This document shows positions 2,774 through 57,157 of a DNA stretch of 64,000 nt, one piece after another. A model generated the notes under the pieces. That model did no database searches and was not told the origin of the DNA. It worked only from the letters and a program-made list of their open reading frames with translations. The stretch lies in assembly GCA_963549285.1 (NCBI GenBank), contig CAUUYF010000001.1:25683-89682 (forward strand). The letters are read 5' to 3'. Made by a program: the position numbers and the translations under genes. How positions within the stretch are numbered: the first letter of the stretch is position 1; each line of letters begins with the position of its first letter. Source of the DNA: an uncultured Candidatus Saccharibacteria bacterium (GTDB taxonomy: Bacteria > Patescibacteriota > Saccharimonadia > Saccharimonadales > Saccharimonadaceae).

Positions 2774-2952
2774 AGCAACGCCTCCTCTCTCATCTTGCTA
2801 ATATTCTAGCACTAATTATCCGCACGGCTTTTGCTTTGTACGGGTTGACTAGATTCCTGGAGCATGCACGTCTAGGGCTCAAGCCGTGTCATGAGTCGAC
2901 CGGTCCGGCGTGACATTGTATTTTCAAATTGGTTATGTATAATGAAAATAGT

Positions 2953-3996: not shown

Positions 3997-3997
3997 G

Positions 3998-5926: not shown

Positions 5927-5931
5927 GTGGT

Positions 5932-7698: not shown

Positions 7699-7739
7699 AG
7701 CATGAGCATGATATAATTAAAAACGAATAGGGAGGCATA

Positions 7740-8804: not shown

Positions 8805-8810
8805 AGACCG

Positions 8811-10019: not shown

Positions 10020-10110
10020 CTGATATTCCGCTGATAGTGCTTGTGTTTTCGCCAGCTTAGTATATAATCAGACATGTAATAATTAATAAAGAAAGGACAT
10101 ACAATCTAGT

Positions 10111-10611: not shown

Positions 10612-10639
10612 TCTTGCCTAAGTATTAGCCTAGGCTATA

Positions 10640-10670
10640 CCTCCTTATCCTCTCGGGATAGGGAGGTTTT
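10640..10670 (+). terminator. rho-independent terminator after pilin gene
   Basis: CCTCCTTATCC-tctcg-GGATAGGGAGG followed by TTTT. Confidence 0.75.
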
Positions 10671-10678
10671 AGCTTTAC

Positions 10679-10687
10679 TGCTATAAT
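10679..10687 (+). promoter_or_regulatory. extended -10 (TGCTATAAT) for pilD
   Basis: The motif ends 6 nt before ATG 10694, implying a leaderless pilD mRNA. Confidence 0.55.
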
Positions 10688-10693
10688 ATGCTT

Positions 10694-29485: not shown

Positions 29486-30439
29486 TTACAGATTGCTCTG
29501 AAACTTGTCGTGCACTTCCTTGAGATGAGGGTCGGTCACGTGAGTGTAGATCTGGGTAGTGGCGATATTGCTATGCCCCAGCATTGACTGGACCGAGCGT
29601 AGGTCGGCGCCATTCATCAGCAGGTCGGTGGCGAAAGAGTGGCGCAAGGTGTGGGGAGTGACGTGCTTGGTGATGCCGGCTGCTTGAGCATATTTACTGA
29701 CGATTCGCTGGATCGAGCGGGGAGTCAGGCGGCGAGCTTCACTGAGGTCGACGCCATCGCCCTCGACGACATTGCGAGAATTATTGAGAAAGAGCGGCTT
29801 GAGCCCGTCTGACCTGGTCTGCAGATATTGCTCGATCGTATCGGCAGCCGATTGGCTGATGAAGATGGGGCGATCCTTACCACCCTTGCCCCTGATGGTG
29901 AATTCTCGTCGATCCAGATTGAGCTGGTCGCAATTGATGCTACATAGCTCGCTGACTCGCATGCCACCCGAGAAGAGCAGCTCGATGATGGCTCGGTCTC
30001 GCAGTCCACTAGGCTGGTCAAGCGGAATGGCGTCGAATAGCCGAGCCACTTCTTCCGCCAGTAGGAAGGAGACCTGTTTCTTCTGAGTGCGGGGTAGGTT
30101 GACCCGGCTGGCATCCAGGGTGGGGATGTCTCGCTGCGAGCAATATTTGAGAAAGCTCCTCAGAGCGATCAGATGATAACTCTGGGTGATGAGCGAGAGT
30201 TCACGCCCTTGTTCGTCGACGAAGCGGTTCAGCCACAGACGATATTTTCTGACCAGTTCGTCGGTGATTTGGCTGACGGGGATGTTGCCGGCGAATTCGA
30301 CCAGTCGGTCCATGTATAGGTTGTAGTTCTCGGCGGTGCGGATGGATCGGCCTCGCTCTATTTCGATGTACTCGACGAAGTCCATGATCAGGTCGGCGAG
30401 GTAATATTCATCATTTTTAGCGTCTTTGTCATGGGTCAT
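29486..30439 (-). CDS. tyrosine recombinase, XerC/XerD family
   Basis: RDRAIIELLFSGGMRVSEL, HTLRHSFATDLLMNGADLRSVQSMLGHSNIATTQIYTHV (R..H-R-Y catalytic set). Start set at MTHDKDAK; the longer track ORF runs into repeat sequence. Confidence 0.85.
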   Translation of the reverse strand: MTHDKDAKNDEYYLADLIMDFVEYIEIERGRSIRTAENYNLYMDRLVEFAGNIPVSQITDELVRKYRLWLNRFVDEQGRELSLITQSYHLIALRSFLKYCSQRDIPTLDASRVNLPRTQKKQVSFLLAEEVARLFDAIPLDQPSGLRDRAIIELLFSGGMRVSELCSINCDQLNLDRREFTIRGKGGKDRPIFISQSAADTIEQYLQTRSDGLKPLFLNNSRNVVEGDGVDLSEARRLTPRSIQRIVSKYAQAAGITKHVTPHTLRHSFATDLLMNGADLRSVQSMLGHSNIATTQIYTHVTDPHLKEVHDKFQSNL

Positions 30440-30514
30440 TAGGCGTATTTTAGCATTTTGCCTAATGTCGCACAAGATGAAGAAATTAAAGTCTCGCCAA
30501 TTTGAGCCCCTCAT

Positions 30515-30985
30515 TCCTCATCTACATCATCATTTCCTTTGTAGCCGCCCGGCTAGTTACTTGTCACTATAGTCTTCATTCTTCACTCTATGTTAATCTG
30601 TAGCTCAAAGCAAAATCTGTAATTTCCCTCCAACGTATAACTTGAGTTTGTACGAGTAGTACAGGTGGTCTCCTCAGGCTTGGCACCGTATAGACTACCA
30701 CGTGCACTGGATAGCTTACTGATATATCAACAGCCTTCGTCAACCACACTGTACTACTCGTACCTAGGAATGCCTGCTTTAATTGAGATTAGATTAAGAA
30801 ATGAGACTAGGGAAATTACAGACATAACCTTCCTTCCGCCTCAAAGGGTGTCTTTCGTCCTTCGTCTGCGTCAGTCATTTCCTGAAGACTGTGCACGCTT
30901 GAAGCTCAGCAGTGCACGAGCCAGCCAGGCGGGTCTGAGGAAAATGATAATAGAGCGAAGAATGAGGGCTGGAGTAGCGAGTGAT
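30515..30985 (+). repeat. L element copy 3 (no 3' arm) with an extra inverted end-module on its left
   Basis: Core from GTAGCTCAAAGC...GTAATTTCCC (30619) to ...GAATGAGGGCTGGAGTAGCGAGTG. At 30563-30589, CACTATAGTCTTCATTCTTCACTCTAT is the inverted match of the element's own 3' end. 30520-30538 resembles the domain-D stem. Confidence 0.85.
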
Positions 30986-30994
30986 TAAATCATC

Positions 30995-31082
30995 AAGTTC
31001 CTTACAAAAAGTGTAGCGATAGCGCCAAAGTTCGTCACAAAAAGTGTAGTAAATCACCAAAAGTTCCTTACAAAAAGTGTAA
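30995..31082 (+). repeat. three direct 22-bp repeats at 33-bp spacing (iteron/operator-like)
   Basis: AAGTTCCTTACAAAAAGTGTAG at 30995, AAGTTCGTCACAAAAAGTGTAG at 31028 and AAGTTCCTTACAAAAAGTGTAA at 31061, immediately upstream of the ATPase gene promoter region. Confidence 0.8.
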
Positions 31083-31124
31083 AAACATGGCATAATTAGT
31101 AGTGGAAGAGAGGAAGTTGACATT

Positions 31125-32453
31125 ATGTACATGTATCGTCAAAAGATTGAAGACCTGAAGGCTTGGCAGAAGAGCCCACACCGTAAACCACTGATCGTTC
31201 GAGGTGCTCGCCAAGTAGGCAAGACAGAGCTGATCAAAGAGTTCGGCAGGACTCAGTATCAGCAGACGGCATACGTCAGCCTGGACAACAACTCTCGCAT
31301 GGCGGCACTCTTTGACGGAGACTTTGACGTTAACCGATTGATCCAGGGCCTGAAAGCCGAGACGAACGTGGACATTGAGCCCGATAGCACCTTGATCGTA
31401 CTGGATGAGATCCAGGAGATACCCAAGGCGCTCACGGCGCTAAAGTACTTTTGCGAAAATGCCCCTCAGTATCATATTGTTGTAGCCGGCAGTCTGTTGG
31501 GTGTAGCCACTCATCAAGGTGTGTCCTTTCCGGTCGGCAAAGTGGATTACTTAGAGCTGGCACCTCTGTCGTTCCGAGAGTTTCTGCTGGCCTTAGGCGA
31601 GAAGCATCTGGTCGAGATGATCACGTCTCCGTCGGTGGATCAAGAGTTACTGGCGTCTTTTCATGATAGACTGATCGATTATATTAAGGCCTATTGCTAT
31701 GTCGGCGGGATGCCGGAGGTGGTGGTCAGTTATGCCGAGCAGAGATCGTGGAACGAGGTGCGACGGATTCAGAATAATATCTTGTTTGATTATGCTAATG
31801 ACTTTAGCAAGCATACACCCGAAGCGTCTTTTGCGAGAAGGATCGAGCAGGTCTGGCGTATCATCCCGAGTCAGCTAGCCAAGGAAAATGCCAAATTTAT
31901 TTTTGGCATGATTCGTGCGGGAGCGAGGGCAAAGGAATATGAATTGGCACTGGCGTGGCTGGAAGAAGCGGGGCTGGTGCGTCGGGTAAATCGGCTGGAA
32001 GCTCCCCGGATACCGATCATGTCGTATGCCAATGCGAGTGCCTTTAAGCTGTACCATCTAGACGTCGGGCTGTTAGCAGCCATGGTACGTCTAGACGAGC
32101 GAGTCTTGCTGGAAGGCAACCAAGTCTTTACCGAGTTTCGGGGATCGTTAGCCGAGCAGTTAGCCCTGCAAGAATTGCAAGTCGATGGCGGTTTGGATGT
32201 CTGCTATTGGGCGATGGATGGGCAATCACGAGCCGAAGTCGAGTTCGTCGTCCAGACCGGCAGTCAGATCGTGCCGGTCGAGGTCAAGAGTGGCACAAAT
32301 CTACGAGCTAAGAGCCTGGCGGTATATATGAATAAGTACCAACCACGACTGGCAGTCCGTTCATCGGTAGCGAATTACAAGAAAACAGACAATCTATATG
32401 ACGTACCCTTCTATCTGCTGAATAACTTCTTTCAGAACATCCAAAAGTACTGA
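31125..32453 (+). CDS. AAA+ ATPase of the AAA_14/DUF4143 type
   Basis: Walker A GARQVGKTELIKEF, Walker B LIVLDEIQEIP. C-terminal region with EVEFVV...VPVEVKSG resembles the DUF4143 restriction-endonuclease-like tail. Confidence 0.78.
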   Translation: MYMYRQKIEDLKAWQKSPHRKPLIVRGARQVGKTELIKEFGRTQYQQTAYVSLDNNSRMAALFDGDFDVNRLIQGLKAETNVDIEPDSTLIVLDEIQEIPKALTALKYFCENAPQYHIVVAGSLLGVATHQGVSFPVGKVDYLELAPLSFREFLLALGEKHLVEMITSPSVDQELLASFHDRLIDYIKAYCYVGGMPEVVVSYAEQRSWNEVRRIQNNILFDYANDFSKHTPEASFARRIEQVWRIIPSQLAKENAKFIFGMIRAGARAKEYELALAWLEEAGLVRRVNRLEAPRIPIMSYANASAFKLYHLDVGLLAAMVRLDERVLLEGNQVFTEFRGSLAEQLALQELQVDGGLDVCYWAMDGQSRAEVEFVVQTGSQIVPVEVKSGTNLRAKSLAVYMNKYQPRLAVRSSVANYKKTDNLYDVPFYLLNNFFQNIQKY

Positions 32454-32518
32454 GTAAATGTAGTGTTCAGTCACTACTGTTAGACGGAGCTGCCACGACT
32501 ATGCTATAATCTAGCTGT

Positions 32519-32594
32519 GGCTCAGTAGCTCAATGGATAGAGCAGCTCCGTCCTAAGGAGAAGGTTGTACGTTCGACTCGTATCTGGGCTACCA
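32519..32594 (+). tRNA. tRNA-Arg (anticodon CCT), CCA encoded
   Basis: Manual cloverleaf with anticodon loop GTCCTAA and T-loop TTCGACT. TGCTATAAT lies 9 nt upstream. Confidence 0.85.
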
Positions 32595-40063: not shown

Positions 40064-43000
40064 TCAGCGCTGAGCAAAGATTGGTGCTAGGTGTACGCTC
40101 ATAAAGAGTGGCTCGCTACCGGTATTGGGTACGCCGGGTGCTTTGGGTGTAGTGGGTGCGCCGGGTACGGGTGACGGGTTTGGCTTGCCGTCATCCCACG
40201 GCGGTAGCTTGACGCAAGTAGATGGTATAGTGCCATCGACCGGCTGAATAGTCTCATACCTAGGGCCTCTGTTTTCGCCAATGATTCGATTGTAGGCGGC
40301 GCCACTCAGCCCGACACAGATAGTATCAGGCTGACTCTGTGGCACGAAGGCAAAGTCGTAGAAGGGGAGATCCTTAGGGTAGTCAGTATAGCCTGAATCA
40401 CCCCGGTACCTTGTCTCTACCTCGCCACTGAGGAGTTTAATCTTCTGCTTACCGCCGAGCAGAGTGCCGACGTCTATCGGGTCAACGCTCCTACCCACGA
40501 AGTACTGACTATGCCTATTGATATGCGTGTCAGTTATGGCGTAGATCGCTCCATCGGCACCACGGGCGACAGGGCCGAGAACATTAAAGAAGCTATCTAG
40601 GTGAGGCAATTTATCACTAGTTGATATCTTTGCCATATCGTGGATAGAGTCATTGCCTTCTCGGTAGCCGTAGTACCATAGACCACCCTGTCTGTCGATG
40701 GCATAATGACCGGCATAAGATAATTGCTTGAACCCGCCTCGTTTTTTAATCTCCGAGTTGGTGATCTCGCTGGTGGTACCGTCTTCCAGTACCCTCAGCA
40801 GCTTGTGATCGGAGGTCAGGGTGTAGTAACCTCCCTTATCCGGCTCGGGCTCTTCCGCTGTGGGTGTGCGATGCTTGATATGATCGACATCGAGGATGGT
40901 GACGCCACTGCTGAGCCGTGGCTTGATCCGATTTTTTGCCTCGTCGTGGTACTGGAGCTGGCTTGTGTCCAGATCGTAGTTCAGAGCAAAGATAGTGTCT
41001 TTGCTAAAGGCGAGGTAGTCACTCATGTTGTCAGGATGACTAGCTACATAGGAAGATAAACCGTTACCATTGCTGGGATCTATGCTTCTACCGAAGCCAA
41101 TGATGTGATGGGGTGACAACTCGCTCAGTGCGACCGGATGTATGATGGGTTTCTTGTCTTTATCAGATAGTCTGTGCCCCCAGTAGTACACTTTGCCGGA
41201 GCTGGTAATGGCTGCAAACGTATGGTAGTGATTTACTAGCTTGACAATCTTGTCGCCGTTAAAGAATCTAGTGATATCCTGGGGGTTACTGTAGTAGACG
41301 GGTGGCTTCTTATCAAGTGTCAAGCCGTAGTCGGTGTCGTTGCCAACCCCGCCTGCGATGTTATTACCCCAGGCATACAGCTTGCCGCTTTCGGTCAGCA
41401 CGACGGTCGTGCCGGCATAGTCTTGGTCTCGCCAGGTCTCCATGTTGCCCATTTTTACCTTACCGTAGTAGTCAAATGTGGCGGGTGAGTGAACCAGCTG
41501 GACGACTTTGTCATCTCTCAGCCCGGTATTGGGTACGCCGGGTGCTTTGGGTGTAGTGGGTACGCCGGGTGGCTGAGGCTGATTAGGAGAGGGCGTGGGT
41601 GCCGGTGGTTTAATTGGGTCGGGATTACCGGATGGTAGCTTGACGCAGGTCAGAGTGGCTTGCTTGCCGGGCTGTTGGCGTAGCTTACCCGTATTGGACG
41701 GAGGAAGCGCACCTAGCGACGGGGCATTATATCTAGATGCTCCGTCAATAGCGGTGCACACCAGATCTCGGTTATCTTCTTCGACGACGAATGAATAATC
41801 GTGGAGCAATTTATCGGCATATCCGGTGGCCTTGATAGTGTCGATATCGCCATGAAAGAGCCTGATTTCTTGTCGGCTGATGATGGTGGTCATGTCGATA
41901 GGTTTATACTTTAGGGTAAAACTATAGTTACTACCTTCTAGAAAGTAGATGTGGTTATCGGCACTGCGAACGACCAGAGGACGACTAAAGTGGTCCATAT
42001 CGGACTCACCATTGGAATTAACAAATTCTCGCAGAGCCGGTAGGACACCCTCAGCTACCTCTGTGGACATATCGACGATGTTACCACCGGGGTCTTCTTG
42101 AAGCTTATGACCATAAAACCACAACCCGCCCCGGTTATCGATGGCGTAATGGTGATGAATCTGCTTGATGCCACCTCGCTCAGCTATTTTAGAATTGGTA
42201 ATCTCGACGGCGGTACCGTCATATCCTACCTTAAAGAGCTTATTGTTTGAGGCAAGAACATAGATACCGCCCCTGTCGACTGATCCACCGACCCAGTGTT
42301 CTACAAAGTCGACTTGCCGAATGGCAGCTCCGTTTAGTTGAGGCTTAATAATCTCGGAAGCGTTGCCTCCGGAGTCATCATAATCAAGGGATGCATTATA
42401 AAAGATAGTATCGTCGCTATAGGCAAACCAGCCGTTAATATGACTCATATTTTCATGATCTACACCATCTGTTCCGCTATAGCCGGTAATGTGATAGGAG
42501 TCCAGTGCCCGGTACTTGGTTGGGTGATTGATAATTGCTTCGGGCTTGAGGTCATGGTGGTAGGCTGAGCCCCAGCGATATAGCTTACCTGACTCGGTAA
42601 TGGCTATGGCGAGACTGCCTTTGTTGGTTAGTCTAGCTATCCTATCCCCATTAAAGTACTTAGTTATTTCCTGGGGTGCATTATAGTAACAGGGTGGTCG
42701 TTTGGGTAATATATCCTTTCCTTCTGCATTCTTGACGTAGGTGCAGACAGCGCCATTACCTACTCCGCCGTACATATTGTTGCCCCAGGCGTAAACCTTG
42801 CCGTTCTGAAGCAGGGCGATAGTCGTACCGGCGTAGGCGTTATCGTTATCATTTCCATCCCCCCAGCTGAATCCATCATAAGGCTGGCCGGGAGCGGCTA
42901 GGTGCAGTATCCGGACGATGTGGTTGGCTGTGTTTCCGCCCGACGACTGACCGGACTGTCTGGTGGTGATGCAGGTAGCTATTGCCGGACCGGCTATTAG

Positions 43001-43099
43001 CAATGCACTAAGGATGGTCGAGACGACAACACTAAGAATTCGTTCCGAGTTACACCATAGTTTTCGGAGCTTGATTTGGTTAATCTGACTGATTTTCAT
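40064..43099 (-). CDS. two-module RCC1-repeat (beta-propeller) surface protein with sortase-like VPNTG sorting signal
   Basis: N-terminal TM/signal. GKVYAWGNNMYGGVGNG / GKLYAWGNNIAGGVGND RCC1-type repeats in two homologous halves. Each half ends with a Pro-rich stalk plus PKAPGVPNTG. The C-terminus is VPNTGSEPLFMSVHLAPIFAQR. Confidence 0.75.
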   Translation of the reverse strand: MKISQINQIKLRKLWCNSERILSVVVSTILSALLIAGPAIATCITTRQSGQSSGGNTANHIVRILHLAAPGQPYDGFSWGDGNDNDNAYAGTTIALLQNGKVYAWGNNMYGGVGNGAVCTYVKNAEGKDILPKRPPCYYNAPQEITKYFNGDRIARLTNKGSLAIAITESGKLYRWGSAYHHDLKPEAIINHPTKYRALDSYHITGYSGTDGVDHENMSHINGWFAYSDDTIFYNASLDYDDSGGNASEIIKPQLNGAAIRQVDFVEHWVGGSVDRGGIYVLASNNKLFKVGYDGTAVEITNSKIAERGGIKQIHHHYAIDNRGGLWFYGHKLQEDPGGNIVDMSTEVAEGVLPALREFVNSNGESDMDHFSRPLVVRSADNHIYFLEGSNYSFTLKYKPIDMTTIISRQEIRLFHGDIDTIKATGYADKLLHDYSFVVEEDNRDLVCTAIDGASRYNAPSLGALPPSNTGKLRQQPGKQATLTCVKLPSGNPDPIKPPAPTPSPNQPQPPGVPTTPKAPGVPNTGLRDDKVVQLVHSPATFDYYGKVKMGNMETWRDQDYAGTTVVLTESGKLYAWGNNIAGGVGNDTDYGLTLDKKPPVYYSNPQDITRFFNGDKIVKLVNHYHTFAAITSSGKVYYWGHRLSDKDKKPIIHPVALSELSPHHIIGFGRSIDPSNGNGLSSYVASHPDNMSDYLAFSKDTIFALNYDLDTSQLQYHDEAKNRIKPRLSSGVTILDVDHIKHRTPTAEEPEPDKGGYYTLTSDHKLLRVLEDGTTSEITNSEIKKRGGFKQLSYAGHYAIDRQGGLWYYGYREGNDSIHDMAKISTSDKLPHLDSFFNVLGPVARGADGAIYAITDTHINRHSQYFVGRSVDPIDVGTLLGGKQKIKLLSGEVETRYRGDSGYTDYPKDLPFYDFAFVPQSQPDTICVGLSGAAYNRIIGENRGPRYETIQPVDGTIPSTCVKLPPWDDGKPNPSPVPGAPTTPKAPGVPNTGSEPLFMSVHLAPIFAQR

Positions 43100-47213: not shown

Positions 47214-47255
47214 ATCCGGAAGTTGAAATATTTGAGTAATAAATATCAGGTGGGC

Positions 47256-48110
47256 ATGCGACAAAAAGTAGTCATCAGGGCGCTGGTAGAGCGACAAGGC
47301 AAGATTTTATTGCTGCGCCGAGTCGGTGGTCGCCCGTCGATTAGCGGGCTATACGAGCTGCCGGGCGGTTCGCTCCATGTCGGCGAGCAGCCGGTGGACG
47401 CACTGAAGCGGAGCTTGCAGATTCATGCCGGTATCGAGCCGGAGACCTTCTGTCTGCGTGATGTTGTCAGCTTCATCGATCCTGACTACCAGAACACCCA
47501 GTATGTTTTCATTGTCTATAGCACAACTATTGATAGAGGCGATAAAGTCACAACGGACGACGAATACGATAAAATCCGCTGGGTTAAGTTGTCAGATATA
47601 CATTATAGCCAGCTAACCTCATCCACTAATATTCTACTAGACATAGCTAAGTTTGACAGTGGTGGCGACAAAGCCACTCCCGACCAGACGGCGACTCGGC
47701 AGACGGCTATTATTCACTCGGACGGTGGCTCTAGAGGCAACCCTGGCCCATCAGCCAGTGCTTATATTATCACTGATCGCTCCGGGCAGACTGTCCTAGC
47801 CCAGGGTGGCAAGTTCATCGGCTATAGTAATAGCGGCATGGCGGAATACATCGGGGTGGAGCTGGGGCTGGCTAAGGCGGTCGAGCTGGGGCTAACTGAT
47901 GTTGATTTCTATAGTGATAACCTGATGGTGGTTAACCAGATTAACGGTATCTTCAAGGTGCATAACCCCGAGTTTATCGACGTCTATAATAGGGTGGTCA
48001 AGCTACTGTTTAACTTTCGGCGGGTACACTTTCACCACATCCACCGTGAGTACAACAGCCTAGCCGACAGCCTGGTCAACAAGATACTGGATGAGCATCA
48101 GGGTAGGTAA
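47256..48110 (+). CDS. Nudix hydrolase fused to RNase HI-like (RVT_3 type) domain
   Basis: N-terminal Nudix fold (ELPGGSLHVGEQPVDALKRSLQIHAG). C-terminal IIHSDGGSRGNPGPSASAY...AEYIGVELGLAKA...DNLMVVNQ...REYNSLADSLVN is the RNase H DEDD pattern. Confidence 0.78.
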   Translation: MRQKVVIRALVERQGKILLLRRVGGRPSISGLYELPGGSLHVGEQPVDALKRSLQIHAGIEPETFCLRDVVSFIDPDYQNTQYVFIVYSTTIDRGDKVTTDDEYDKIRWVKLSDIHYSQLTSSTNILLDIAKFDSGGDKATPDQTATRQTAIIHSDGGSRGNPGPSASAYIITDRSGQTVLAQGGKFIGYSNSGMAEYIGVELGLAKAVELGLTDVDFYSDNLMVVNQINGIFKVHNPEFIDVYNRVVKLLFNFRRVHFHHIHREYNSLADSLVNKILDEHQGR

Positions 48111-48230
48111 GTGTGGGCGCATGGCGTGACGCCGTGTTATTGCGCTAGTCGGTAGCGGTCGTCCAAGTTCGTGCGCTGGCTCTCTGCTATATATCAGCAA
48201 GGCTCATTTGTTATAATCTTCATAAGCACT

Positions 48231-51200
48231 ATGAATAGACATAATAGTTATCAACAGCCGGAAGTGACAGCGAACGACGCCAATGCCAAGCAGTGGCAGA
48301 GTGACGTGCCGGAACAAGGAGCTAGTAAAGTAGATAACTACGGCAACGCCAGTGATGTCAATGGCTATAAAAATGCTAACGATACCAACCGCACGTCAGA
48401 TCAAGGCGAGACCGTTGAAGTCCGGGTAATCAAAGGCGACCGGGACGAACCTAATAACGGCGAGCCCGGTCAGGTAGGGCAGGGCGGTCAAGCTGGTCAG
48501 ACCGTCCGGACTGATACCGATGAGTCGCAATATAGCACTAACGTTGACCCGGAAGAGCGGAGCGGTCGAGTTGCTCAGGCCGGTGCTGAGGTACAGCCTA
48601 AGAAAAGAGGGATAATAGAGCTACTTGGCTCCAGCCCGCTAGGTGTCATGGCGCAGACAGCGCTCGACTCGGTAAGACAACTTCGAACAAAGAAGCAAGA
48701 ATATAAACAGGCGTGGCTAATCAGACGCATATTGAATATGTCGTCTAGTGCCGTTGATCACAGCAAGCAAGAGGCGCTAGAGCAACAGCGGAAGCACGCT
48801 CAACTTAATCAGCTGGTTGAAGACGGCGAACTTGACTTATCTAACAAGCGAGTCTTGCAAACCTATATGGATAAGATGAGGACAAGAACGGCAATAAGTG
48901 ACGAGGTCGCCGAGTCAGACTCCAAGTTTATTTCCAAGATGCTGCGAGAGGGTAAAATCAACTTATCTGACCCGGAGATGGCCAAAGGGTTTCTGGATAC
49001 TCGTGAAAACTATCATAACAAGTATTTTGGTATACGAGAGGCACTTGAGCTGGGTAAGCTTGATCTATCCAATGAGGATATCAAGCGCCATTTCTTAGAT
49101 TCGCTTGCTGACGTCAAGGCTGATAGTGTAGCTTTACTTGACGCCTCTGGTCTTCCTATTGAGGAGATTGCAACTAATGAACACATCCAGCAAGTCATCG
49201 TCGATGAAACAAGTAAAAGGGTGCATTCAATAGAGACAAATAGCTATGACAACGATGAATTATCTTCGGTAGATAAAGCCGGCGATTCATACCGCTTTGG
49301 CATCATTGATGCAATTTGTGCTACCGAGGATGGTAGACAACGCTTAGCTGACTCGATAAATAAAGCCTCCGGATGCGAGAGCATTCAAGATGTGGGTGAG
49401 AAGATTGAGAACAACATACTGTGGGGCATTAATCCTAGAAACGAACGGTCTCGTAGTAGCCCATACGACAAGCTTATCCATAATAGTGCTCTCATCCAGA
49501 ACGTCGCCAAATATAACAGCGTGCTCAGAAAGCTCGGCTGGGAGCCACTGAAGAAAGATGAGTCACTCGCTAAGTTATTTTATACATACGTAGACTACGG
49601 GATTCAAGAAGAAGAAAGAGCTAAGAGACGAATTGATCTTCAAGATAGAGCATACAAGCTAGGTCTTATTACCCCCGAAGTTACTGACCGATTATATGAC
49701 CGTCAATTCAACGTGCTATTCAGAGAGGCGAGAAATGGATTTACATGGATACTGGATAGTGATGGTGGCGACGCATTCCTATCCGGCCATGTTGTTAGTC
49801 CTGATCTAGTTCCAAGTGGTAACGACCTAACGGCTAACTACTGGCGGGAACAATCTAGCTACTTGGGCAATGATGCGATGCGGCTCTGTATGGCGCAGGC
49901 ATACGGTATGACCTTCTTAGAAGATCGGTGGACACTTAAGCTATCCGACCTGATAGACAAGAAGGGCATTCTCAAGGATGCATTCTTTCAAAATCGTCCA
50001 GGATCATTCCTACGAGACGTCTACAATGCTCAAGAGACTTATGATTCTTGTGACGGCGAGGAATACGCAAGGACTGTTAGATTTCTGGAAGCGCACAAGG
50101 ATCAGACTAGAAAAGCCGACGGCAGCAGAGCACTGGTCAATCTGCTGGGCAAGATGAAAAATGAAAATGGCGGTTATGACATGAAAGCTATTATTGATCT
50201 ACAGCGCTTAACCGGTCTTACCTATAACTATAAGAAGTTGTTTGATGCCAATGGTCTGAAACCGGAAGTCTGGCAAGATGCTTTCTCACGAGGGGGTTAC
50301 CTTGCGATTCTTAGGTGCTCTCAAAACCAAGACGAAGCTGGCAAGAAGCGGATGGGGCTGGATGACAAGCAGATAGCGGTCGCAAGAGGCTATAGTAGTA
50401 TTAGTGAAGGCAATGACTGGAATGACTCTCGAAGTCTCTTCGAATCATATGTTAGAGAACATTACGATGAACTGACTATCGACCAAATCAAGTGGACAGC
50501 AAGCATCATGGCTCGCCTGTCCAACTCTAACGCCAGTGAACTGGCTGATCGTTCCGAGGCTTTCACTCGTGAGCTACTCAAGCTGGATACAGACAAGATC
50601 CCTGAGGCTCTAGATAAGATCGAGGATGTCTATATTCATAATCACTTACCCTACGTCGGCAAGAACTACCTAGTCTTCCGGACAATGCATCCGTCAGATA
50701 ATCTGGAAAATGATTTTCACTTTGACAATGGCCGGATCAGCCCCGTCCTTCAGCAAGCCACCGGCGATATAAGGAGCGGCAAGTTGGATCAGATGCTCAA
50801 TAGCAGGGATGCCATCATCATCTCGGACCTGCTCCGAGCCTCGCTCGGCTCTAATAACCGCTCAATCAGGGAGTATCTAGCTACCCTAAAGAACGGCCAA
50901 GCTCTACTTGATCAGCTGAGCTCGGGCGAACTGGCTTGGGATGCCTTTAACCAGCCAACTAGCCTGATGGATAAAGACACTAAGGCTAATTATGACACCC
51001 TCAGTACCTTTGCTTGGCACTTAACTACTCTCTACAACAGCACCTTACCCGGTAAAGAACATCCCTATCAGCTGATCCATCAGCAAGCAGGTCAGTCGAA
51101 CACCAAAAACCAACTAGACCACCCCAACGCTCTCCAAACCGACTTCGCTAACCTGACTAGCCTGATCAAACCCAACAGCCGATATACTCTGGCTGACCGA

Positions 51201-52943
51201 GCCGTCCGTTACTTTGCTCACTTCGTCGGTATCGAGGATTTAGCCGGTGCTGAGCGGTACATGGATAATATCGTCAAAGAGGCAGATGCCAGAAACCGCA
51301 AAACAGCTGAATACCTTGCTACTACGAAGGAGCCTAAGCTCCAGCCCGGTGACCTGGTCAAAGGTATGGGCGGCACCAGAGGCAGTGGTATCCGTTACCT
51401 ATCTTACGCTTTCCAGAATGGCTCTATCTCTAAAGAGTACTTAGGTGATGCGTCTCGTAGTGACACTACGCCACTGGATGCTGATGTGAGTATAGTCCTG
51501 TACGGCGAACAGACGATTGACCAAACCATGGATAATATGCTAGCTGACGGTTATGGCTGGGGTCTCTGGACGGTGCTGAGACCCGACAAGGATAGATTCA
51601 TTGTCACTCGACGTGACGAAGGTGAAGCCGACCAAAGTGTCTATGATCTGAGTGTGCCCGATGCTAACTTTGACCGTACCGACCTCACTCAGGAAGAGAT
51701 TGACCGTCGTCTCAAGGAGATAGCGGAAGCTAAGCGCCATCGCCGAGAGGGGTTGTCCAAGCTGGAAATCTTTGCTACCGGTGTAGATGGCGAGGGTCAC
51801 TATGGCATCCGGACCGGCTTTGGTATGGATAAAGTTAGCTTCTTCGTCGCTATCCCTGCTTCCTATGGCATTACCCCCGTCTCCGAAGTCACTAAGCTGG
51901 AGATCGCCCTGGGTGGCTTCTATATCCCGATCGTAGAGAGAGACAGTGAGGAGCTAGTCTTCACCCCGGCTGACTATGACAAGATGAGGGAGCAGATGTC
52001 CGGCCTCAGCTACTACCATACCGGTGACTATGTCTTCGCCCCGGATAGTGAGCTGGAGCTCCCTTCTACCGATGTCGGTAAGACTACCATTCCTAGCACT
52101 ACCACCATCATCAGTGAACTCCCAACTAGCATAGCCGAGACTGATCATAAGCATGAAGTGATCAATCAGGCCATCAAGCAGGCTATCACTGGCATCCCTG
52201 AGCTAAACCTCAGCTATAAAGACTACCTAGATGGTGACCTAACCGAGAATATAGTTGAGATGATCGATACCGGCTCAACCGGCAGACAGACTAATGCTCC
52301 CGGCTCCGGTGACTTTGACTACGTGGCTAGACTGGATAGAAGTATCCTTAATGATCCGACCAAGAAGCAGCAGATCGCTGATGCGCTCCTTACTGCCTTT
52401 GGTAGAGAGAATGATGGTAGCGCCATAGTCAATGGTAACCTTCGCCTCAAACAAGTATCTATCGATGGACTAACCGAACCAGCTGACATTGACATCACCT
52501 TCGTTCAGAAGACTAACAAAGTCCAATACTCGACTGATATGGCACTGACTGACCGTTTAACTAACATTAAGAAACAGTCGGAGCATAAATACCACCAAGT
52601 CCTGGCTAACGTCATCTACGCCAAGCAGTTCCTCAAGGCTGCCGGTGCCTACAAGCCAAGACGCAGTCCCGAGGCAGAAGGAGTGGGCGGACTAGGCGGT
52701 GTCGGCATCGAGAACTGGGTTCTGCAGCATGGCGGCTCATTCAAACAAGCTGCTAGAGACTTCCTGAGTGTAGCTGACAACTACTCCAGCTTTGAGGACT
52801 TCCGTACCTACTACCCGGTCTGGGACTATGGTGAGAACCATAAAGGCATTCGCAGTAAGCCCCACGACAACTTCGTTGCTGACAATATGAACCAAGAGGG
52901 CTATGAGCGGATGAAAGAGGCGCTCAGGACAGTGGTGGGGTAG
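48231..52943 (+). CDS. giant protein (about 1570 aa) with C-terminal Pol-beta-type nucleotidyltransferase domain resembling class I CCA-adding/poly(A) polymerase heads
   Basis: Disordered N-terminus and long helical middle. C-terminal TGSTGRQTNAPGSGDFDYVARLD (G[GS]-x9-13-DxD), ADIDITFV (third carboxylate strand) and KQFLKAAGAYKP...GLGGVGIENWVLQHGGSF (compare K.FLK..G.YG...GFSGY..ELL...GSF). ATG 48231 lies after TGTTATAAT. Confidence 0.6.
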   Translation: MNRHNSYQQPEVTANDANAKQWQSDVPEQGASKVDNYGNASDVNGYKNANDTNRTSDQGETVEVRVIKGDRDEPNNGEPGQVGQGGQAGQTVRTDTDESQYSTNVDPEERSGRVAQAGAEVQPKKRGIIELLGSSPLGVMAQTALDSVRQLRTKKQEYKQAWLIRRILNMSSSAVDHSKQEALEQQRKHAQLNQLVEDGELDLSNKRVLQTYMDKMRTRTAISDEVAESDSKFISKMLREGKINLSDPEMAKGFLDTRENYHNKYFGIREALELGKLDLSNEDIKRHFLDSLADVKADSVALLDASGLPIEEIATNEHIQQVIVDETSKRVHSIETNSYDNDELSSVDKAGDSYRFGIIDAICATEDGRQRLADSINKASGCESIQDVGEKIENNILWGINPRNERSRSSPYDKLIHNSALIQNVAKYNSVLRKLGWEPLKKDESLAKLFYTYVDYGIQEEERAKRRIDLQDRAYKLGLITPEVTDRLYDRQFNVLFREARNGFTWILDSDGGDAFLSGHVVSPDLVPSGNDLTANYWREQSSYLGNDAMRLCMAQAYGMTFLEDRWTLKLSDLIDKKGILKDAFFQNRPGSFLRDVYNAQETYDSCDGEEYARTVRFLEAHKDQTRKADGSRALVNLLGKMKNENGGYDMKAIIDLQRLTGLTYNYKKLFDANGLKPEVWQDAFSRGGYLAILRCSQNQDEAGKKRMGLDDKQIAVARGYSSISEGNDWNDSRSLFESYVREHYDELTIDQIKWTASIMARLSNSNASELADRSEAFTRELLKLDTDKIPEALDKIEDVYIHNHLPYVGKNYLVFRTMHPSDNLENDFHFDNGRISPVLQQATGDIRSGKLDQMLNSRDAIIISDLLRASLGSNNRSIREYLATLKNGQALLDQLSSGELAWDAFNQPTSLMDKDTKANYDTLSTFAWHLTTLYNSTLPGKEHPYQLIHQQAGQSNTKNQLDHPNALQTDFANLTSLIKPNSRYTLADRAVRYFAHFVGIEDLAGAERYMDNIVKEADARNRKTAEYLATTKEPKLQPGDLVKGMGGTRGSGIRYLSYAFQNGSISKEYLGDASRSDTTPLDADVSIVLYGEQTIDQTMDNMLADGYGWGLWTVLRPDKDRFIVTRRDEGEADQSVYDLSVPDANFDRTDLTQEEIDRRLKEIAEAKRHRREGLSKLEIFATGVDGEGHYGIRTGFGMDKVSFFVAIPASYGITPVSEVTKLEIALGGFYIPIVERDSEELVFTPADYDKMREQMSGLSYYHTGDYVFAPDSELELPSTDVGKTTIPSTTTIISELPTSIAETDHKHEVINQAIKQAITGIPELNLSYKDYLDGDLTENIVEMIDTGSTGRQTNAPGSGDFDYVARLDRSILNDPTKKQQIADALLTAFGRENDGSAIVNGNLRLKQVSIDGLTEPADIDITFVQKTNKVQYSTDMALTDRLTNIKKQSEHKYHQVLANVIYAKQFLKAAGAYKPRRSPEAEGVGGLGGVGIENWVLQHGGSFKQAARDFLSVADNYSSFEDFRTYYPVWDYGENHKGIRSKPHDNFVADNMNQEGYERMKEALRTVVG

Positions 52944-53196: not shown

Positions 53197-53273
53197 TGGT
53201 GGGCGATTCAGGACTTGAACCTGAGACCTCGTCATTATCAGTGACGCGCTCTAACCAGCTGAGCTAATCGCCC
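53197..53273 (-). tRNA. tRNA-Ile (anticodon GAT), CCA encoded
   Basis: Reverse complement GGGCGATTAGCTCAGCTGGTTAGAGCGCGTCACTGATAATGACG..., anticodon loop CTGATAA. Confidence 0.9.
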
Positions 53274-53300
53274 AAGTTACTCTATTGTAACACCTAAAAG

Positions 53301-53377
53301 TGGTGGAGATAAAGAGGCTCGAACTCTTGACCTCCTGCTTGCAAAGCAGGCGCTCTAGCCAACTGAGCTATATCCCC
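53301..53377 (-). tRNA. tRNA-Ala (anticodon TGC), CCA encoded
   Basis: Reverse complement GGGGATATAGCTCAGTTGGCTAGAGCGCCTGCTTTGCAAGCAGG... with a G3:U70 pair. TTGCGT-18-TAGAAT promoter upstream on the minus strand. Confidence 0.9.
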
Positions 53378-53493
53378 ACGCCATGCATTCTACCAGATAC
53401 GGGCGAATTGACGCAAGGCGGTGTGAGGGGGGTGCTTAGCGGTGAACATAGCCGAATTAGGGGTGAATTAGTGTATAATGCTTGTATAAATAT

Positions 53494-56388
53494 ATGCATC
53501 GATACGAAAAGCCACCGATCAAAAAAGTTGACCCCTCTAATGAGTGGGGCGGGGAAGATGTGTTCAGGCTGCCTGAGCCTGATCAGGCGGGTGAATTGAC
53601 GAACTCACCTCAGCCCGGTGAAGTCGCAAGGGTGGATGAGTCTCTTATTCAGCCTGAAACGACCGGGGCTACACCCTCGCCGGAGGTGGCGGAGGGTGAG
53701 CCGTCTTTGGAGCAGATGTCACAACACTTATTAGATATGATTGTCGATCTTGCTGGTAGTGATGACGAGGAGGCTATAGAGCCACCTCCGCTAGCTGCTG
53801 CTAGATGTTTGGCGGAGTCCGTGCCGATAATTAAGGCGGATGATCCGGCTAAGGACGAAGTGATCAGGGGTGTGTTAAATAACTGTCGGCGCTACGACGA
53901 CTCTATCAAATACCACTTGATTAATGACATTTCGACTCTGTTTAGTGAGCAGGATGTCACTCCGGCCAGTCATGATGGACTGGAGGATCTGACGGTAGAC
54001 TGTCTGAGCCAAGCGGTGCGAGACCACCGGAATCGGTTTGTCGAGCCGGTGGAGTCTATCTCCAGTCCGGCTTACGGCTATTTTATTAACAAGGTACTGG
54101 CTGATACAGAGTCGGCCAACGAAGTGAAGGAGCGTCTTGACCAGGAGGATATCAGTATGGCAGATGTCGCCGGGGCGACCATTCTAGACGACCGTTACAT
54201 CTGCCTGTATAAGCCCGGCGACGATAATCCCGAGCTAAAGCAGCAGGTGCTGGATAACACCAAGAGCCTGGTTGATAGTCTAAAGAGCTTGGGTTACGAC
54301 CCGCTGGAGGACAGGCGGTTTGTCGAGCGATGTTGCGACGAGAAGCTGGGTGAAGCTACTCAAGAGAATCTATACCAAGCCGGAGTGCTCAATGACGATA
54401 ATGTCGCTAGGCTATATGACTATTTGATCAGTAGTGGTAGGGGTATGGTGGCTGTCGTCTCGACCAAGATTTGCCCTGACGCTCCGGCGACTAAATTTTG
54501 GAACACAGTTGATGTAGATGACAGCTCGGGGCACAGACCGGCTAGTGAACGGACGTTGGTACAGTCAATTGAGATGAACCGCTTCAGTGGCTTTCTAAAC
54601 TCGATTAGATCAAGGGGCAAGGACCGTCCTATCAGTGATTATTTTACTGACGGGGCGCCAAACGAGCTCTTTATTGAGACCCTAGATCAGAGCTTGAAGC
54701 TTAAGAAAGAAGAATACAACGGCAGCTTTGTGCATGATTGCATCGGTCGCACCCCGATGACGCCACTGATACTGGACAAACTGGGCGATGTGCAACGGCG
54801 GTCGGTAGAGGCCTATGGTAGCTTGGAGTCGTTTGAAGAGGGTCAGACTTTCTGCGAGGTCATGCAGGAGGGGCGGGAAGAGCATGCTGACCCGGCTAAG
54901 GTAGCGGAAGATATCCGACATCTCGCTCAGCGTTTCCCATTCTTGCGAGGTACTTATACCAAGCTCCTCCGGCTGGAGCACGATGGCAAGGCGGCTATCC
55001 TGGGCGATGACTACATTGGCGATATCGTCTACTACGATAGTCACGTCGACGATATCATCTGTGATAAAATGACGAGCCAACAGAAGATCGAGACGATAAA
55101 ACGCCGCCTGGATACATTACAACGGTATGATTTATTTAATGGCGACAGAGCTCGGACGACCAACTACGCCGTCTTGGTGGGGGAGAAAGAGGGGTCAGGA
55201 GAACTATTTGACGATCTGGCCGATGTGGTTGAGTTGAGCGAAGAGACCAAGCAAAATCTGGTAAAGGTACTGAGAACTGGCAATTTCTGCCATATTCGCT
55301 CGTTGGAAGAGCTGGAGAATTACCGAGCGATCGTTTCGGAGCGGCTTTGTGACGACTTGATCAGTGGCAAGAGAGACGAGGTCGTCAAAGCGGCTCGCTT
55401 CATTATGCGACCAGATAGACCAAGCCGCACGCTGGAAGCTTATGATCTGAAGCACCTTGCCAAAGCCGGCGCATTGACGATTAATGACCGGGCAGTGATG
55501 CTGCTGCGCAAGAAGATAAAAGGTGCTAAGAGCGCCGAGGATGTCCTGCGGGTGATTCAGAACTCTCCCTTGTGTACGCCGGTAGTGGGTGACGACGGAG
55601 TGGCTCGGATCACTAAGATCGAGGGCTCAGAGTCTGATCTAATGGATAAGCTAGTTCGCTTTATCACCGACGATTGGAATCAAGCTTTGTTTGACCCGAG
55701 CGCCGACAATGATGGGGTGGAGCACATCCAAGTAGCCGACGATCAAGGTGAGGGCAAGATTGACGTGGTTAAGCTGAATGGCGCTCCTTTTAATATTCTC
55801 AGTCATACTATCTACATGTTTGGTAATGCGAGTATTTATAACGCCTTGATGAAAGATCCCGGTGTCTGGAATACGGCTCGGGGATCATCAACCATTTCGG
55901 CCAGCTGTGTCAGTAGCGATTATCTCTATTATCTGGAAGACGGGAGCCATAGGAGTGTGACGCTAGGTTTTAACAATATTAGCTATGGCGGTATCATCGG
56001 CATGTGCCCGCAAGATGGCTATCTCAGCGGCAACTTCTTGCCTAATATGTTTAGTCTGCCCCTGACGACTTGTGATGAGTTTATTAAGCGGTGCATTAGC
56101 AAGCGGGAACAATCCGTGGCGGGCGAATTGGATACGATGCACTATAACGAGGTGGGACTATTCCGTAACTCCGGTGATCTAAACGTCCGACATGGCCGCC
56201 TGCAACCGTCCTATATCGTGGCACACGGTGCTGATGTGGCGGTGATTAACGACAACAGCAAGAAATTTGCTCGGTATTTTGGCATACCGATAGTGTTGAT
56301 TGATGATAAGGCGTACTATAGAAAAAATAATTTTGCTTATTATAATAAGAATAGGCTAAAGGAGGCAAAGCATGAAAAGCAGCAATAG
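53494..56388 (+). CDS. giant protein (about 964 aa), partly paralogous to the 48231 gene; C-terminal domain of unknown function (weak ADP-ribosyltransferase-like pattern)
   Basis: Acidic disordered N-terminus. Block LKSLGYDPLEDRRF...LYQAGVLNDDNVARLYDY parallels LRKLGWEPLKKDES...AYKLGLITPEVTDRLYDR in the other giant. The C-terminus has SHTI..., GSSTISASCVSSDY, HYNEVGLF. Confidence 0.55.
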   Translation: MHRYEKPPIKKVDPSNEWGGEDVFRLPEPDQAGELTNSPQPGEVARVDESLIQPETTGATPSPEVAEGEPSLEQMSQHLLDMIVDLAGSDDEEAIEPPPLAAARCLAESVPIIKADDPAKDEVIRGVLNNCRRYDDSIKYHLINDISTLFSEQDVTPASHDGLEDLTVDCLSQAVRDHRNRFVEPVESISSPAYGYFINKVLADTESANEVKERLDQEDISMADVAGATILDDRYICLYKPGDDNPELKQQVLDNTKSLVDSLKSLGYDPLEDRRFVERCCDEKLGEATQENLYQAGVLNDDNVARLYDYLISSGRGMVAVVSTKICPDAPATKFWNTVDVDDSSGHRPASERTLVQSIEMNRFSGFLNSIRSRGKDRPISDYFTDGAPNELFIETLDQSLKLKKEEYNGSFVHDCIGRTPMTPLILDKLGDVQRRSVEAYGSLESFEEGQTFCEVMQEGREEHADPAKVAEDIRHLAQRFPFLRGTYTKLLRLEHDGKAAILGDDYIGDIVYYDSHVDDIICDKMTSQQKIETIKRRLDTLQRYDLFNGDRARTTNYAVLVGEKEGSGELFDDLADVVELSEETKQNLVKVLRTGNFCHIRSLEELENYRAIVSERLCDDLISGKRDEVVKAARFIMRPDRPSRTLEAYDLKHLAKAGALTINDRAVMLLRKKIKGAKSAEDVLRVIQNSPLCTPVVGDDGVARITKIEGSESDLMDKLVRFITDDWNQALFDPSADNDGVEHIQVADDQGEGKIDVVKLNGAPFNILSHTIYMFGNASIYNALMKDPGVWNTARGSSTISASCVSSDYLYYLEDGSHRSVTLGFNNISYGGIIGMCPQDGYLSGNFLPNMFSLPLTTCDEFIKRCISKREQSVAGELDTMHYNEVGLFRNSGDLNVRHGRLQPSYIVAHGADVAVINDNSKKFARYFGIPIVLIDDKAYYRKNNFAYYNKNRLKEAKHEKQQ

Positions 56389-56746: not shown

Positions 56747-57150
56747 GCCAGTTTGCCGGATGGTCGCTGGTGAGGCGATGGCCTCACGAGAGGAAAGTCC
56801 GGGCAGTGTAGAGCAACGACAGTCGCTAACGGCGACCGGGGGTAACCCTAGGGAAAGTGCCACAGAAACGATACCGCCCAGCACCTTTACTAGCTTTGTG
56901 TCGGATGTCGGCCGAGTCGACGGTAACTCGCAGAGCTAGTAAAGGTGCCGGGTAAGGGTGAAAGGAGTGAGGTAAGAGCTCACAGTCGGATGCGGTGACG
57001 CATCAGAGAGGTAAACCCTGTTGACTGCAAGGAGATCGGGTCACTGGTGGCTCGCCAGCCGATCGTTTTAACCCGCTAGACGTGATTAGCAATAGTCATG
57101 GTAGATAGATGACCATCTAAACAGGACCCGGCTTATAGGCAGACTGGTAG
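56747..57150 (+). ncRNA. rnpB: RNase P RNA (bacterial type A-like)
   Basis: Conserved GAGAGGAAAGTCCGGGC (P4 5' strand), AGGGTGAAA region and ACAGGACCCGGCTTATAGG (P4 3' strand). P1 pairs GCCAGTTTGCC with GGCAGACTGGT. Confidence 0.88.
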
Positions 57151-57157
57151 ACTTAAT

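Follow-up and report, generated by a model that had tools for sequence, protein, structure and literature searches.

The question raised by this locus is what a nucleotidyltransferase (NTase) domain that recalls archaeal class I CCA-adding enzymes does at the end of a protein of ~1570 residues. The gene lies at 48231..52943 on the forward strand of a 64,000-nt stretch of DNA from an uncultured Candidatus Saccharibacteria bacterium (assembly GCA_963549285.1, contig CAUUYF010000001.1, positions 25,683 to 89,682), and we refer to the whole of this stretch as the window. A first-pass annotation made from the sequence alone had described the C-terminal domain as a class I CCA-adding or poly(A) polymerase (PAP)-like NTase. 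We found that the protein is soluble and multidomain, with the NTase as its catalytic C-terminal domain, and we consider it very likely that this domain is a two-lobed Pol-beta NTase of the OAS/CCA type with a complete active site, and not a CCA-adding enzyme. Although the catalytic fold is a familiar one, the family, its second conserved domain, its architecture and its evolutionary behavior had not previously been described in the libraries and literature that we searched: there was no Pfam, NCBIfam, PHROGs or PADLOC model for the family, and we found no publication on it; a 2026 preprint about how actinobacteria defend themselves against Saccharibacteria offers context only. As to function, we tentatively propose an intracellular protein that senses an invader and responds through the NTase.

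Evidence for a two-lobed nucleotidyltransferase

Residues are numbered throughout in the 1590-residue frame that opens at GTG 48171. Because searches with single sequences were silent (the window protein alone gave no usable match in Pfam, PDB sequences, NCBIfam or PHROGs), the NTase assignment rests on conservation and structure. The last 380 residues had more than 170 homologues, and our main alignment held 54 sequences with 36–88% identity to the window protein. The features that carry the assignment are the following.

52086..52940 (+), two-lobed NTase domain, residues 1306-1590 (AlphaFold2, Foldseek, alignment)
52269..52337 (+), G1368-S1369...D1381-x-D1383, helix-turn and two metal-binding carboxylates (invariant in 54/54; alignment with the Archaeoglobus fulgidus enzyme)
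52482..52505 (+), strand with the third carboxylate, D1441 (54/54; adjoins the DxD strand; aligns with D110 of the A. fulgidus enzyme)
52608..52742 (+), helical-lobe motifs A-K1485-x-x-L-K...Y1494-K and G-G-L-G-G-x-G-x-E-N-W-x-L-Q-x-G-G-S-F (invariant or nearly invariant columns)
52860..52889 (+), H1565-D-N-F-V-x-x-N-M motif (H, D, F, N and M each in at least 90% of sequences)

The first-pass annotation had read TGSTGRQTNAPGSGDFDYVARLD (residues 1367-1389, 52269-52337) as the Pol-beta signature G[GS]-x(9-13)-D-x-D, and the alignment bore this out: 11 residues separate S1369 from D1381, and G1368, S1369, T1370, R1372, D1381, F1382 and D1383 were invariant in all 54 sequences. It had also placed the third carboxylate on the strand ADIDITFV (residues 1438-1445, 52482-52505), where D1441 was likewise invariant and D1439 nearly so. 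The remaining invariant residues lie in the helical lobe, with A1484, K1485, Y1494 and K1495 in NVIYAKQFLKAAGAYKP (residues 1480-1496) and G1507, G1512, E1514, W1516, G1522 and S1523 in GLGGVGIENWVLQHGGSF (residues 1507-1524). When we turned to a more diverse set of 25 sequences, GS, both Asp residues of DxD, K1485 and Y1494 were still invariant and D1441 was present in at least 90%.

An AlphaFold2 model of residues 1031-1590 had a mean predicted local distance difference test score (pLDDT) of 86 and a predicted template modeling score (pTM) of 0.85, with pLDDT above 90 over the NTase part. In this model the NTase domain consists of a long N-terminal helix, then a Pol-beta catalytic lobe, then a helical lobe of the PAP/OAS/CCA type, and D1381/D1383 and D1441 sit on neighboring strands. 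A Foldseek search of the PDB with the model gave 50 listed matches, all 50 of them Pol-beta-fold proteins and 17 with E-values of 1e-3 or less. They consisted of active NTases and the related pseudo-enzymes NF90/NF45, MiD51 and OASL, with a helical lobe of the PAP/OAS type, and the alignments (~300 columns each, 11–17% identity) covered both lobes. The best E-values were to porcine OAS1 (8e-5) and to the A. fulgidus class I CCA-adding enzyme (1.5e-4, many entries); further matches included CdnC, CdnE, CdnD, TUTase4, NF90/NF45, cGLR and MiD51. The structure search and Asp alignment that had been suggested as a check on the original assignment thus returned an NTase fold with the catalytic Asp residues in register. 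Against viral structures (BFVD), Foldseek gave no match below 1e-3.

Fainter traces of the same relationship were seen with sequence profiles. PF01909 matched 28 of the 54 members below threshold, the window protein itself being among those that fell short, and its gathering score was passed by one family member (P0434, 25.7 bits). SMODS matched 5/54 members (best E-value 0.018) and the PADLOC 'Cyclase' model matched with an E-value of 0.0039 (14.9 bits), all below threshold, and a diverse NTase profile searched against PDB sequences gave borderline matches to a CD-NTase (6e0m, E-value 0.019) and to an MNT-type NTase (E-value 0.035). The SMODS, 'Cyclase' and diverse-profile matches were all confined to the GS..DxD stretch.

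Taken by its features, the domain has the signature of the Pol-beta superfamily (hG[GS]-x(9-13)-[DE]h[DE]h, a third carboxylate and, by structure comparison, an alpha/beta core) together with a second lobe of the PAP/OAS1 type, that is, a helical lobe supplying a Lys and a Tyr to the triphosphate of the nucleoside triphosphate (NTP), for which the Foldseek matches and the invariant K1485 and Y1494 speak. The active site is complete, with a GS turn, three carboxylates that would bind two Mg2+ ions and a Lys/Tyr pair that would hold the NTP triphosphate, and judging by these residues and the model the enzyme is very probably active.

Comparison with class I CCA-adding enzymes

The first-pass annotation had pointed to a neck motif of class I CCA-adding enzymes in the helical lobe, and we compared the window protein with the A. 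fulgidus enzyme (sequence of PDB 1r89_A, 437/437 residues). In a local pairwise alignment G1368-S1369 fell on G46-S47, R1372 on R50, D1381/D1383 on E59/D61 and D1441 on D110. The alignment also paired FLKAAGAY with FLKANGIY, so that Y1494 corresponds to Y161, and the GLGG..E..W..GGSF stretch with GFSGY..E..L..YGSF; the motif is therefore genuine. K1485 was paired with K152 by eye; in the A. fulgidus enzyme K152 and Y161 hold the NTP triphosphate. The local alignment stopped just short of R224, the templating Arg that this enzyme uses, with a beta-turn, for C/A selection; the conserved H-D-N-F-V-x-x-N-M is located there. In the CCA-I, OAS and PAP families a motif 'h-D-P-x(5-6)-N-h' follows the neck, and H1565-D-N-F-V-x-x-N-M may correspond to it. 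When the family was compared with the A. fulgidus enzyme by hhalign, the register was right, with an E-value of 0.16 over the GS..DxD stretch alone.

The likeness to the CCA motif is thus real but statistically weak, and it is common to the whole PAP/OAS/CCA-I group. Since OAS1, CdnC/CdnE/CdnD, TUTase4 and NF90/NF45 match as well as the CCA-adding enzyme does, we regard the nearest kin of the domain as the whole group of NTases with a head lobe and a PAP/OAS-type neck, and not class I CCA-adding enzymes specifically. Of the original class I CCA/PAP-like assignment, the superfamily fold stands on the Foldseek matches, the alignment and the model, and the specificity for class I CCA does not.

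Domain layout and the C-terminal module

In the list of open reading frames (ORFs) the gene is open from a GTG at 48171 to 52943 (+), i.e., over 1590 residues. The true start is probably M21 (ATG 48231), because a 92%-identical orthologue (P0124, 1557 residues) begins at the equivalent residue, and this gives the length of ~1570 residues that had been stated for the protein. Two structure models were used, one of residues 1031-1590 (the AlphaFold2 model above) and one of residues 141-1310, with residues 21-140 in neither. The regions ahead of the NTase domain are as follows.

48231..52943 (+), whole gene (ORF list; start of P0124 equivalent to M21)
48231..48590 (+), low-complexity N-terminal stretch rich in N, D, Q and G, residues 21-140 (sequence)
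48591..50270 (+), variable all-helical solenoid-like region, residues 141-700 (predicted model, identity comparisons, Foldseek)
50271..51260 (+), conserved helical region, residues 701-1030 (BLASTP; shared with Firmicutes homologues)
51261..52085 (+), alpha/beta 'middle' domain and linker, residues 1031-1305 (alignments, model)

Residues 21-140 are probably disordered, and the opening residues of the 141-1310 model had pLDDT below 50. Residues 141-700 are helical from end to end in this model and form the most divergent part of the gene; they are lineage-specific, with no BLAST similarity to Firmicutes proteins, and Foldseek on the model retrieved only generic helical solenoids of the HEAT/ARM type, none with an E-value better than 0.05. 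Residues 701-1030, which contain the motifs SNASEL (786-791) and GSNNRS (893-898), matched a 1015-residue clostridial protein by BLASTP (locus L002; 30% identity over 249 columns, E-value 7e-27), and an unbroken match of 37–39% identity to fused Firmicutes proteins extended across residues ~714-1566. The sequence upstream of the NTase had been described as ~1300 residues, largely helical, with a disordered N-terminus; this holds for ~900 helical residues and probably for residues 21-140, but residues ~1055-1290 make up an alpha/beta domain of their own, which is conserved. The family members examined, P0124 included, showed neither a signal peptide nor a transmembrane segment.

The middle domain and the NTase together make up a module of ~560 residues (1031-1590). 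Among the best 150 of 1209 clusters the module was matched end to end, and proteins of 1000–6100 residues almost without exception ended in it; the NTase was never standalone among the homologues, being always preceded by the middle domain. This domain has ~190 residues in most members and up to ~250 in others, and is longer in Saccharibacteria through an inserted helix. Its invariant residues are NG, D1098-x-T-P-L-D1103-x-D1105, G-I-R-T-G (1212-1216), Y-I-P (1251-1253) and G-L (1278-1279), and its pLDDT in the AlphaFold2 model is mostly 70–90. We found no Pfam family recurring across the middle domain in the 54 members. A profile search of PDB sequences gave no match, a more diverse profile gave only noise (an LCP protein with an E-value of 0.23 and Csf2 with 0.45), and the Foldseek runs on the models of residues 1031-1590 and 141-1310, in which the domain was included with its neighbors, gave it no PDB match better than an E-value of 0.05. 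We therefore found no solved relative of the middle domain.

Most Firmicutes members are fused proteins of 1530–1560 residues. At four clostridial loci (L002-L005), tandem stop codons split the gene into parts encoding 1015 and 550 residues, with a new ATG 13 nt downstream, and a split at this boundary also occurs in a Saccharibacteria relative (L001) and in a further bacterium with a reduced genome (L093, probably of the candidate phyla radiation). Of 47 loci that could be assessed, 38 had a fused and intact gene and nine a split or interrupted one. The independent splits at one boundary in Clostridia, L001 and L093, along with these counts, indicate that the module behaves as an autonomous unit.

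Distribution, mobility and variability of the family

The family comprises at least 1209 clusters at 50% identity, mostly of proteins of 1000–1700 residues with some reaching ~6100, and 522 loci were located in the species representatives of GTDB. Family members abound in metagenomes of the human gut and oral cavity. The giant members include proteins of 4932 (P0377), 6114 (P0381) and 3529 residues (P0434), in which the module lies far from the N-terminus, and one giant has an N-terminal transglutaminase-like core. Several giants open with a helical hairpin containing 'YWSGEAK' ('WSGEA') that by eye resembles WXG-type secretion substrates, which Pfam did not confirm. We also considered LXG/WXG100 domains in the giant members and rejected them, as Pfam gave only coiled-coil noise.

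In Firmicutes the family member is a lone gene. At L002-L005 it is the main cargo of a ~11-kb Tn4451-like element, inserted at differing sites, that carries a large serine recombinase, a Mob_Pre relaxase, Bro-N genes, the gene pair and TnpV. The Bro-N genes match the PADLOC candidate defence system PDC-S13, and the NTase protein itself does not. Adjacent ORFs of 140 and 165 residues on this element (L002, 5868-6741; also L003-L005) match the two halves of PDC-S13, so that the PDC-S13 gene appears to be split or frameshifted there. Elsewhere the gene immediately follows a large serine recombinase and has a Dam methylase in its vicinity (L091/L092), lies near a restriction-modification pair and an integrase fragment (L009) or next to a Fic gene (L090), or is found by itself among housekeeping genes (L006). 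At L009 a SUKH-family immunity-type gene lies downstream of the family gene; we rejected it as a conserved immunity gene, since it is unrelated to the gene downstream at L002. Searches of GenBank phages and PLSDB plasmids by tblastn gave no match and a scan of IMG/VR gave no relative, so that, as far as these collections go, it is not a gene of phages or plasmids.

Oral Saccharibacteria carry the family at two or three chromosomal loci, and several metagenome-assembled genomes (MAGs) have three copies; there is no second copy within the 64-kb window. The gene order at the window locus is M50 peptidase, NUDIX-RNase H, NTase gene, tRNA-Ile and tRNA-Ala, and a gene for a 968-residue protein, and another Saccharibacteria locus has uvrB on one side and two ABC exporter genes on the other. 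When we compared the syntenic window locus across species-representative MAGs, the flanking proteins were 93–100% identical and the NTase proteins ranged from 36% to 99% identity over residues 141-700, from 76% to 97% over residues 701-1030 and from 75% to 99% over the module. There were mosaics, e.g., L055, with 96% identity in the N-terminal part and 79% in the module. GC content at third codon positions (GC3) was 0.46 in the variable part versus ~0.63 in housekeeping genes. The gene is thus retained, with rapid turnover of its recognition-like part. Roughly half of the contigs break off within the gene, ~36 of the 80 Saccharibacteria loci (L010-L089) within its N-terminal half, as expected for diverged repeats; this suggests that the paralogues routinely break metagenome assemblies, and copy number is probably under-counted.

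A NUDIX hydrolase fused to an RNase H-like (RVT_3) domain is encoded immediately upstream (47223-48110, +) and is 99–100% conserved across MAGs. The 968-residue protein encoded downstream (53482-56388, +) has an acidic, probably disordered N-terminus and gave no Pfam, NCBIfam, PHROGs or PADLOC match. We considered it as a paralogue and rejected this for want of any similarity to the NTase protein, and as a co-evolving partner and rejected this too, since it is 93–97% identical across MAGs while the NTase gene varies. Between the NTase gene and the gene for this protein lies a tRNA-Ile(GAT) and tRNA-Ala(TGC) pair (53197-53377, -), followed by a strong terminator-like hairpin (53180-53163, -). 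Such a pair usually occupies the 16S-23S spacer, and there is no rRNA in the window.

A proposed function and its alternatives

We propose that the enzyme would carry out untemplated nucleotidyl transfer, in which an NTP gives up its nucleoside monophosphate to a hydroxyl group, most likely the 3'-OH at an RNA end or on a nucleotide. We favor this chemistry because it is what every active structural neighbor carries out, whether in CCA addition, in tailing or in the synthesis of 2'-5' or cyclic oligonucleotides. The variable solenoid would be the recognition part and the middle domain with the NTase the constant output of an intracellular sensor-effector conflict protein that works in the manner of OAS and cGAS, where a bound foreign ligand would license the NTase and, through the product of the NTase or through RNA modification, the invader or the cell would be shut down. 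A role in conflict is suggested by the divergence of the gene between near-identical flanks, by the multiple paralogues and mosaics and by the mostly intact ORF. We prefer an intracellular sensor-effector since there is no export signal and no immunity gene, and since the family occurs as a single gene on mobile elements, with defence-type neighbors at several Firmicutes loci. We hold this explanation as a whole, including the intracellular role, as a tentative one that falls somewhat short of probable.

The proposal has parallels among single-protein sensor-effector defence systems, which likewise join a hypervariable helical-repeat N-terminus to a conserved C-terminal enzyme, have several alleles or paralogues and occur on mobile elements. 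The analogy is a functional one only, as we detected no STAND (signal transduction ATPase with numerous domains) or other NTPase switch domain and no PADLOC model match. It is possible, though doubtful, that the family represents an unrecognized class of such proteins, widespread in Firmicutes of the gut and mouth, in part through serine-recombinase transposons, and expanded to two or three hypervariable alleles in oral Saccharibacteria. In this class a diversifying solenoid would detect a molecule from an invader or a host and activate an output of two enzymes, made up of the OAS/CCA-type NTase and a new catalytic alpha/beta domain marked by D-x-T-P-L-D-x-D and G-I-R-T-G. If this were true, it would bring RNA-end tailing or nucleotide-signal chemistry that is new to bacterial immunity or to the manipulation of a host by its epibiont. 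Independently of this, the family couples a catalytic fold that is well understood to a conserved domain for which no solved relative was found. Saccharibacteria genomes are smaller than about 1 Mb, and that such tiny genomes keep two or three paralogues of ~1500 residues, with allele turnover far above that of their neighbors, points to a central part in their conflict with phages or actinobacterial hosts. The Firmicutes gene is the principal cargo of small mobilizable transposons, of a kind that otherwise carries resistance genes.

Four alternatives concern what the catalytic domain does. That the gene encodes a housekeeping class I-type CCA-adding enzyme or poly(A) polymerase replacing the bacterial class II enzyme is scarcely credible, even with the A. 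fulgidus enzyme (PDB 1r89, 3ovs and others) among the top structural matches, sharing the head and neck architecture and aligning at its catalytic and NTP-binding residues. In class I CCA-adding enzymes the body and tail domains bind the acceptor and T-arm of tRNA and measure the 3' end; the window protein ends 66 residues past GSF and lacks both, and hence this clamp, so that Foldseek covers ~300 of the 430–440 residues of its CCA-enzyme targets. Identity is only 13–16%, PF09249 was not among the recurrent or reported Pfam matches in the 54 members, and profile searches of PDB sequences retrieved no CCA enzymes. A class II enzyme (PF01743) was not found among the 24 window ORFs scanned, which weighs little given that these cover only 64 kb of the genome. 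All eight tRNA genes in the window encode the 3' CCA, as the first-pass annotation had noted, and the domain is the C-terminal part of a multi-copy, hypervariable protein (two or three divergent paralogues per genome) whose gene is split or interrupted at nine of 47 loci and mobile in Firmicutes. The protein is not a tRNA CCA-adding or repair enzyme, and the first-pass view of it as an effector or modifier in preference to a housekeeping enzyme agrees with the missing body and tail domains, the several paralogues, the extreme divergence between near-identical flanks and the serine-recombinase elements of Firmicutes. We also judge it highly improbable that the domain is a catalytically dead scaffold that only binds nucleotide or RNA, like NF90/NF45 or MiD51, which are among its structural matches: pseudo-enzymes lose active-site residues, whereas the GS turn, the three carboxylates and the Lys/Tyr pair are invariant over the 54 sequences down to 36% identity, and the diverse set of 25 keeps them nearly as strictly. 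An NTase-HEPN module of the MNT-HEPN/KNTase type, in which the helical lobe would be a HEPN RNase regulated by AMPylation by the NTase, is very improbable too. PF18735 (HEPN_RiboL-PSP) matched the helical lobe in 11/54 members, ten of them weakly and one above the gathering threshold (P0040, residues 347-471, equivalent to window residues ~1455-1580; 30.9 vs 28.4 bits, E-value 3e-7), and the borderline match to an MNT-type NTase would fit as well. We put the HEPN matches down to similarity of the helical lobes because the HEPN signature Rx4-6H lacks conservation (26/54 sequences have the Arg, and the spacing is Rx3H); moreover, the invariant residues of the lobe (K1485, Y1494 and GG..E..W..GGSF) are NTP-binding and neck motifs of CCA-I and OAS, and Foldseek aligns the whole unit of ~300 residues with OAS, CCA and CD-NTase structures. 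A signal synthase of the CD-NTase/OAS type is an alternative of a different order, if still an unlikely one. It would make a cyclic or 2'-5' oligonucleotide, with the middle domain as effector or receptor, in a one-protein system resembling CBASS (cyclic oligonucleotide-based antiphage signaling system). Target-normalized Foldseek TM-scores were highest for CdnE and CdnC (0.45–0.51), the best E-value was to OAS1, and OAS1, cGAS-like receptors and CD-NTases also share the long N-terminal helix ahead of the catalytic lobe; the SMODS and 'Cyclase' echoes and the best PDB sequence-profile match (6e0m) point the same way, as does the obligatory fusion of the NTase to a second conserved domain, and the logic of a sensor licensing an NTase that we propose is theirs. 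However, these sequence matches are all below threshold and limited to the universal GS..DxD stretch, no family model reached its threshold, and the helical-lobe motifs resemble the archaeal CCA enzyme at least as closely. The neighborhoods examined held no Cap or effector genes and no CBASS operon (an effector, optionally with Cap2/Cap3 or HORMA/TRIP13), and the window NTase is fused to an unrelated alpha/beta domain and a ~1000-residue helical region. TUTase4 and other PAP-family polymerases are likewise two-lobed NTases with a PAP/OAS-type helical lobe (Foldseek E-values 8e-4 to 8e-3), but their TM-scores are lower (0.31–0.39), there was no PAP_assoc or PAP_central Pfam match, and the context of our family is bacterial and mobile.

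The main rival to the sensor-effector proposal concerns where the protein acts. It holds that the protein or its module is an exported or injected effector or toxin that enters another cell (an actinobacterial host in the case of the epibiont, a competitor in that of the Firmicutes) and nucleotidylylates RNA or protein there. We consider this improbable but worth serious attention, as very long proteins (to 6114 residues, one member having the N-terminal transglutaminase-like domain) end in the module, the gene is hypervariable with several paralogues in an obligate epibiont, the N-terminus is probably disordered, a SUKH-family gene follows one Firmicutes locus, and some giants begin with the hairpin-like 'WSGEA' stretch noted by eye. 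On the other side, we found no signal peptide, transmembrane segment or recognized trafficking domain, LXG and WXG100 included. Neither was there a conserved neighboring immunity gene, the SUKH gene not being conserved and the 968-residue neighbor showing no co-variation. Polymorphic toxins pair a trafficking domain at the N-terminus with a variable toxin at the C-terminus and have a cognate immunity gene alongside; here there is no conserved downstream gene, and the C-terminal enzyme is conserved and the N-terminus variable, which is the reverse arrangement.

Several observations weigh against the sensor-effector proposal itself. Structural similarity does not separate RNA tailing from oligonucleotide synthesis or protein nucleotidylylation, and we infer activity, substrate and phenotype from sequence, predicted structure and analogy. 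The Saccharibacteria loci lie among housekeeping genes and not in defence islands, and the defence-island signal in Firmicutes comes from a handful of loci. In PADLOC-DB v2 no system model matched, the sub-threshold 'Cyclase' hit being the only one, and PADLOC, Pfam, NCBIfam and PHROGs gave no above-threshold match for the window protein. To our knowledge, a disordered N-terminus of 120 residues is unusual for defence sensors. Lastly, hypervariability, paralogy and a C-terminal enzyme fit an exported effector equally well.

Other features of the window

A second gene in the window may also be fast-evolving or acquired: an ORF of 1023 residues (22742-25813, +) has no Pfam family and a GC of 0.47 and GC3 of 0.47, like the variable part of the NTase gene. 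A tyrosine integrase (29486-30514, -) and an AAA_14/DUF4143 ATPase (31125-32453) lie beside a tRNA-Arg(CCT) gene (32519-32594), and this stretch (29486-32594) may be the remnant of a tRNA-integrated element. The window also contains a type IV pilus cluster (2929-11578, +) encoding PilM, two T2SSE-family ATPases, a T2SSF platform protein and a prepilin peptidase (A24), and a gene for a 1011-residue beta-propeller protein with RCC1 repeats/WD40_RLD (40064-43099, -), whose L001 orthologue has 1513 residues. A class A bacterial RNase P RNA was found at 56748-57151 (+) with a score of 258.6 bits.

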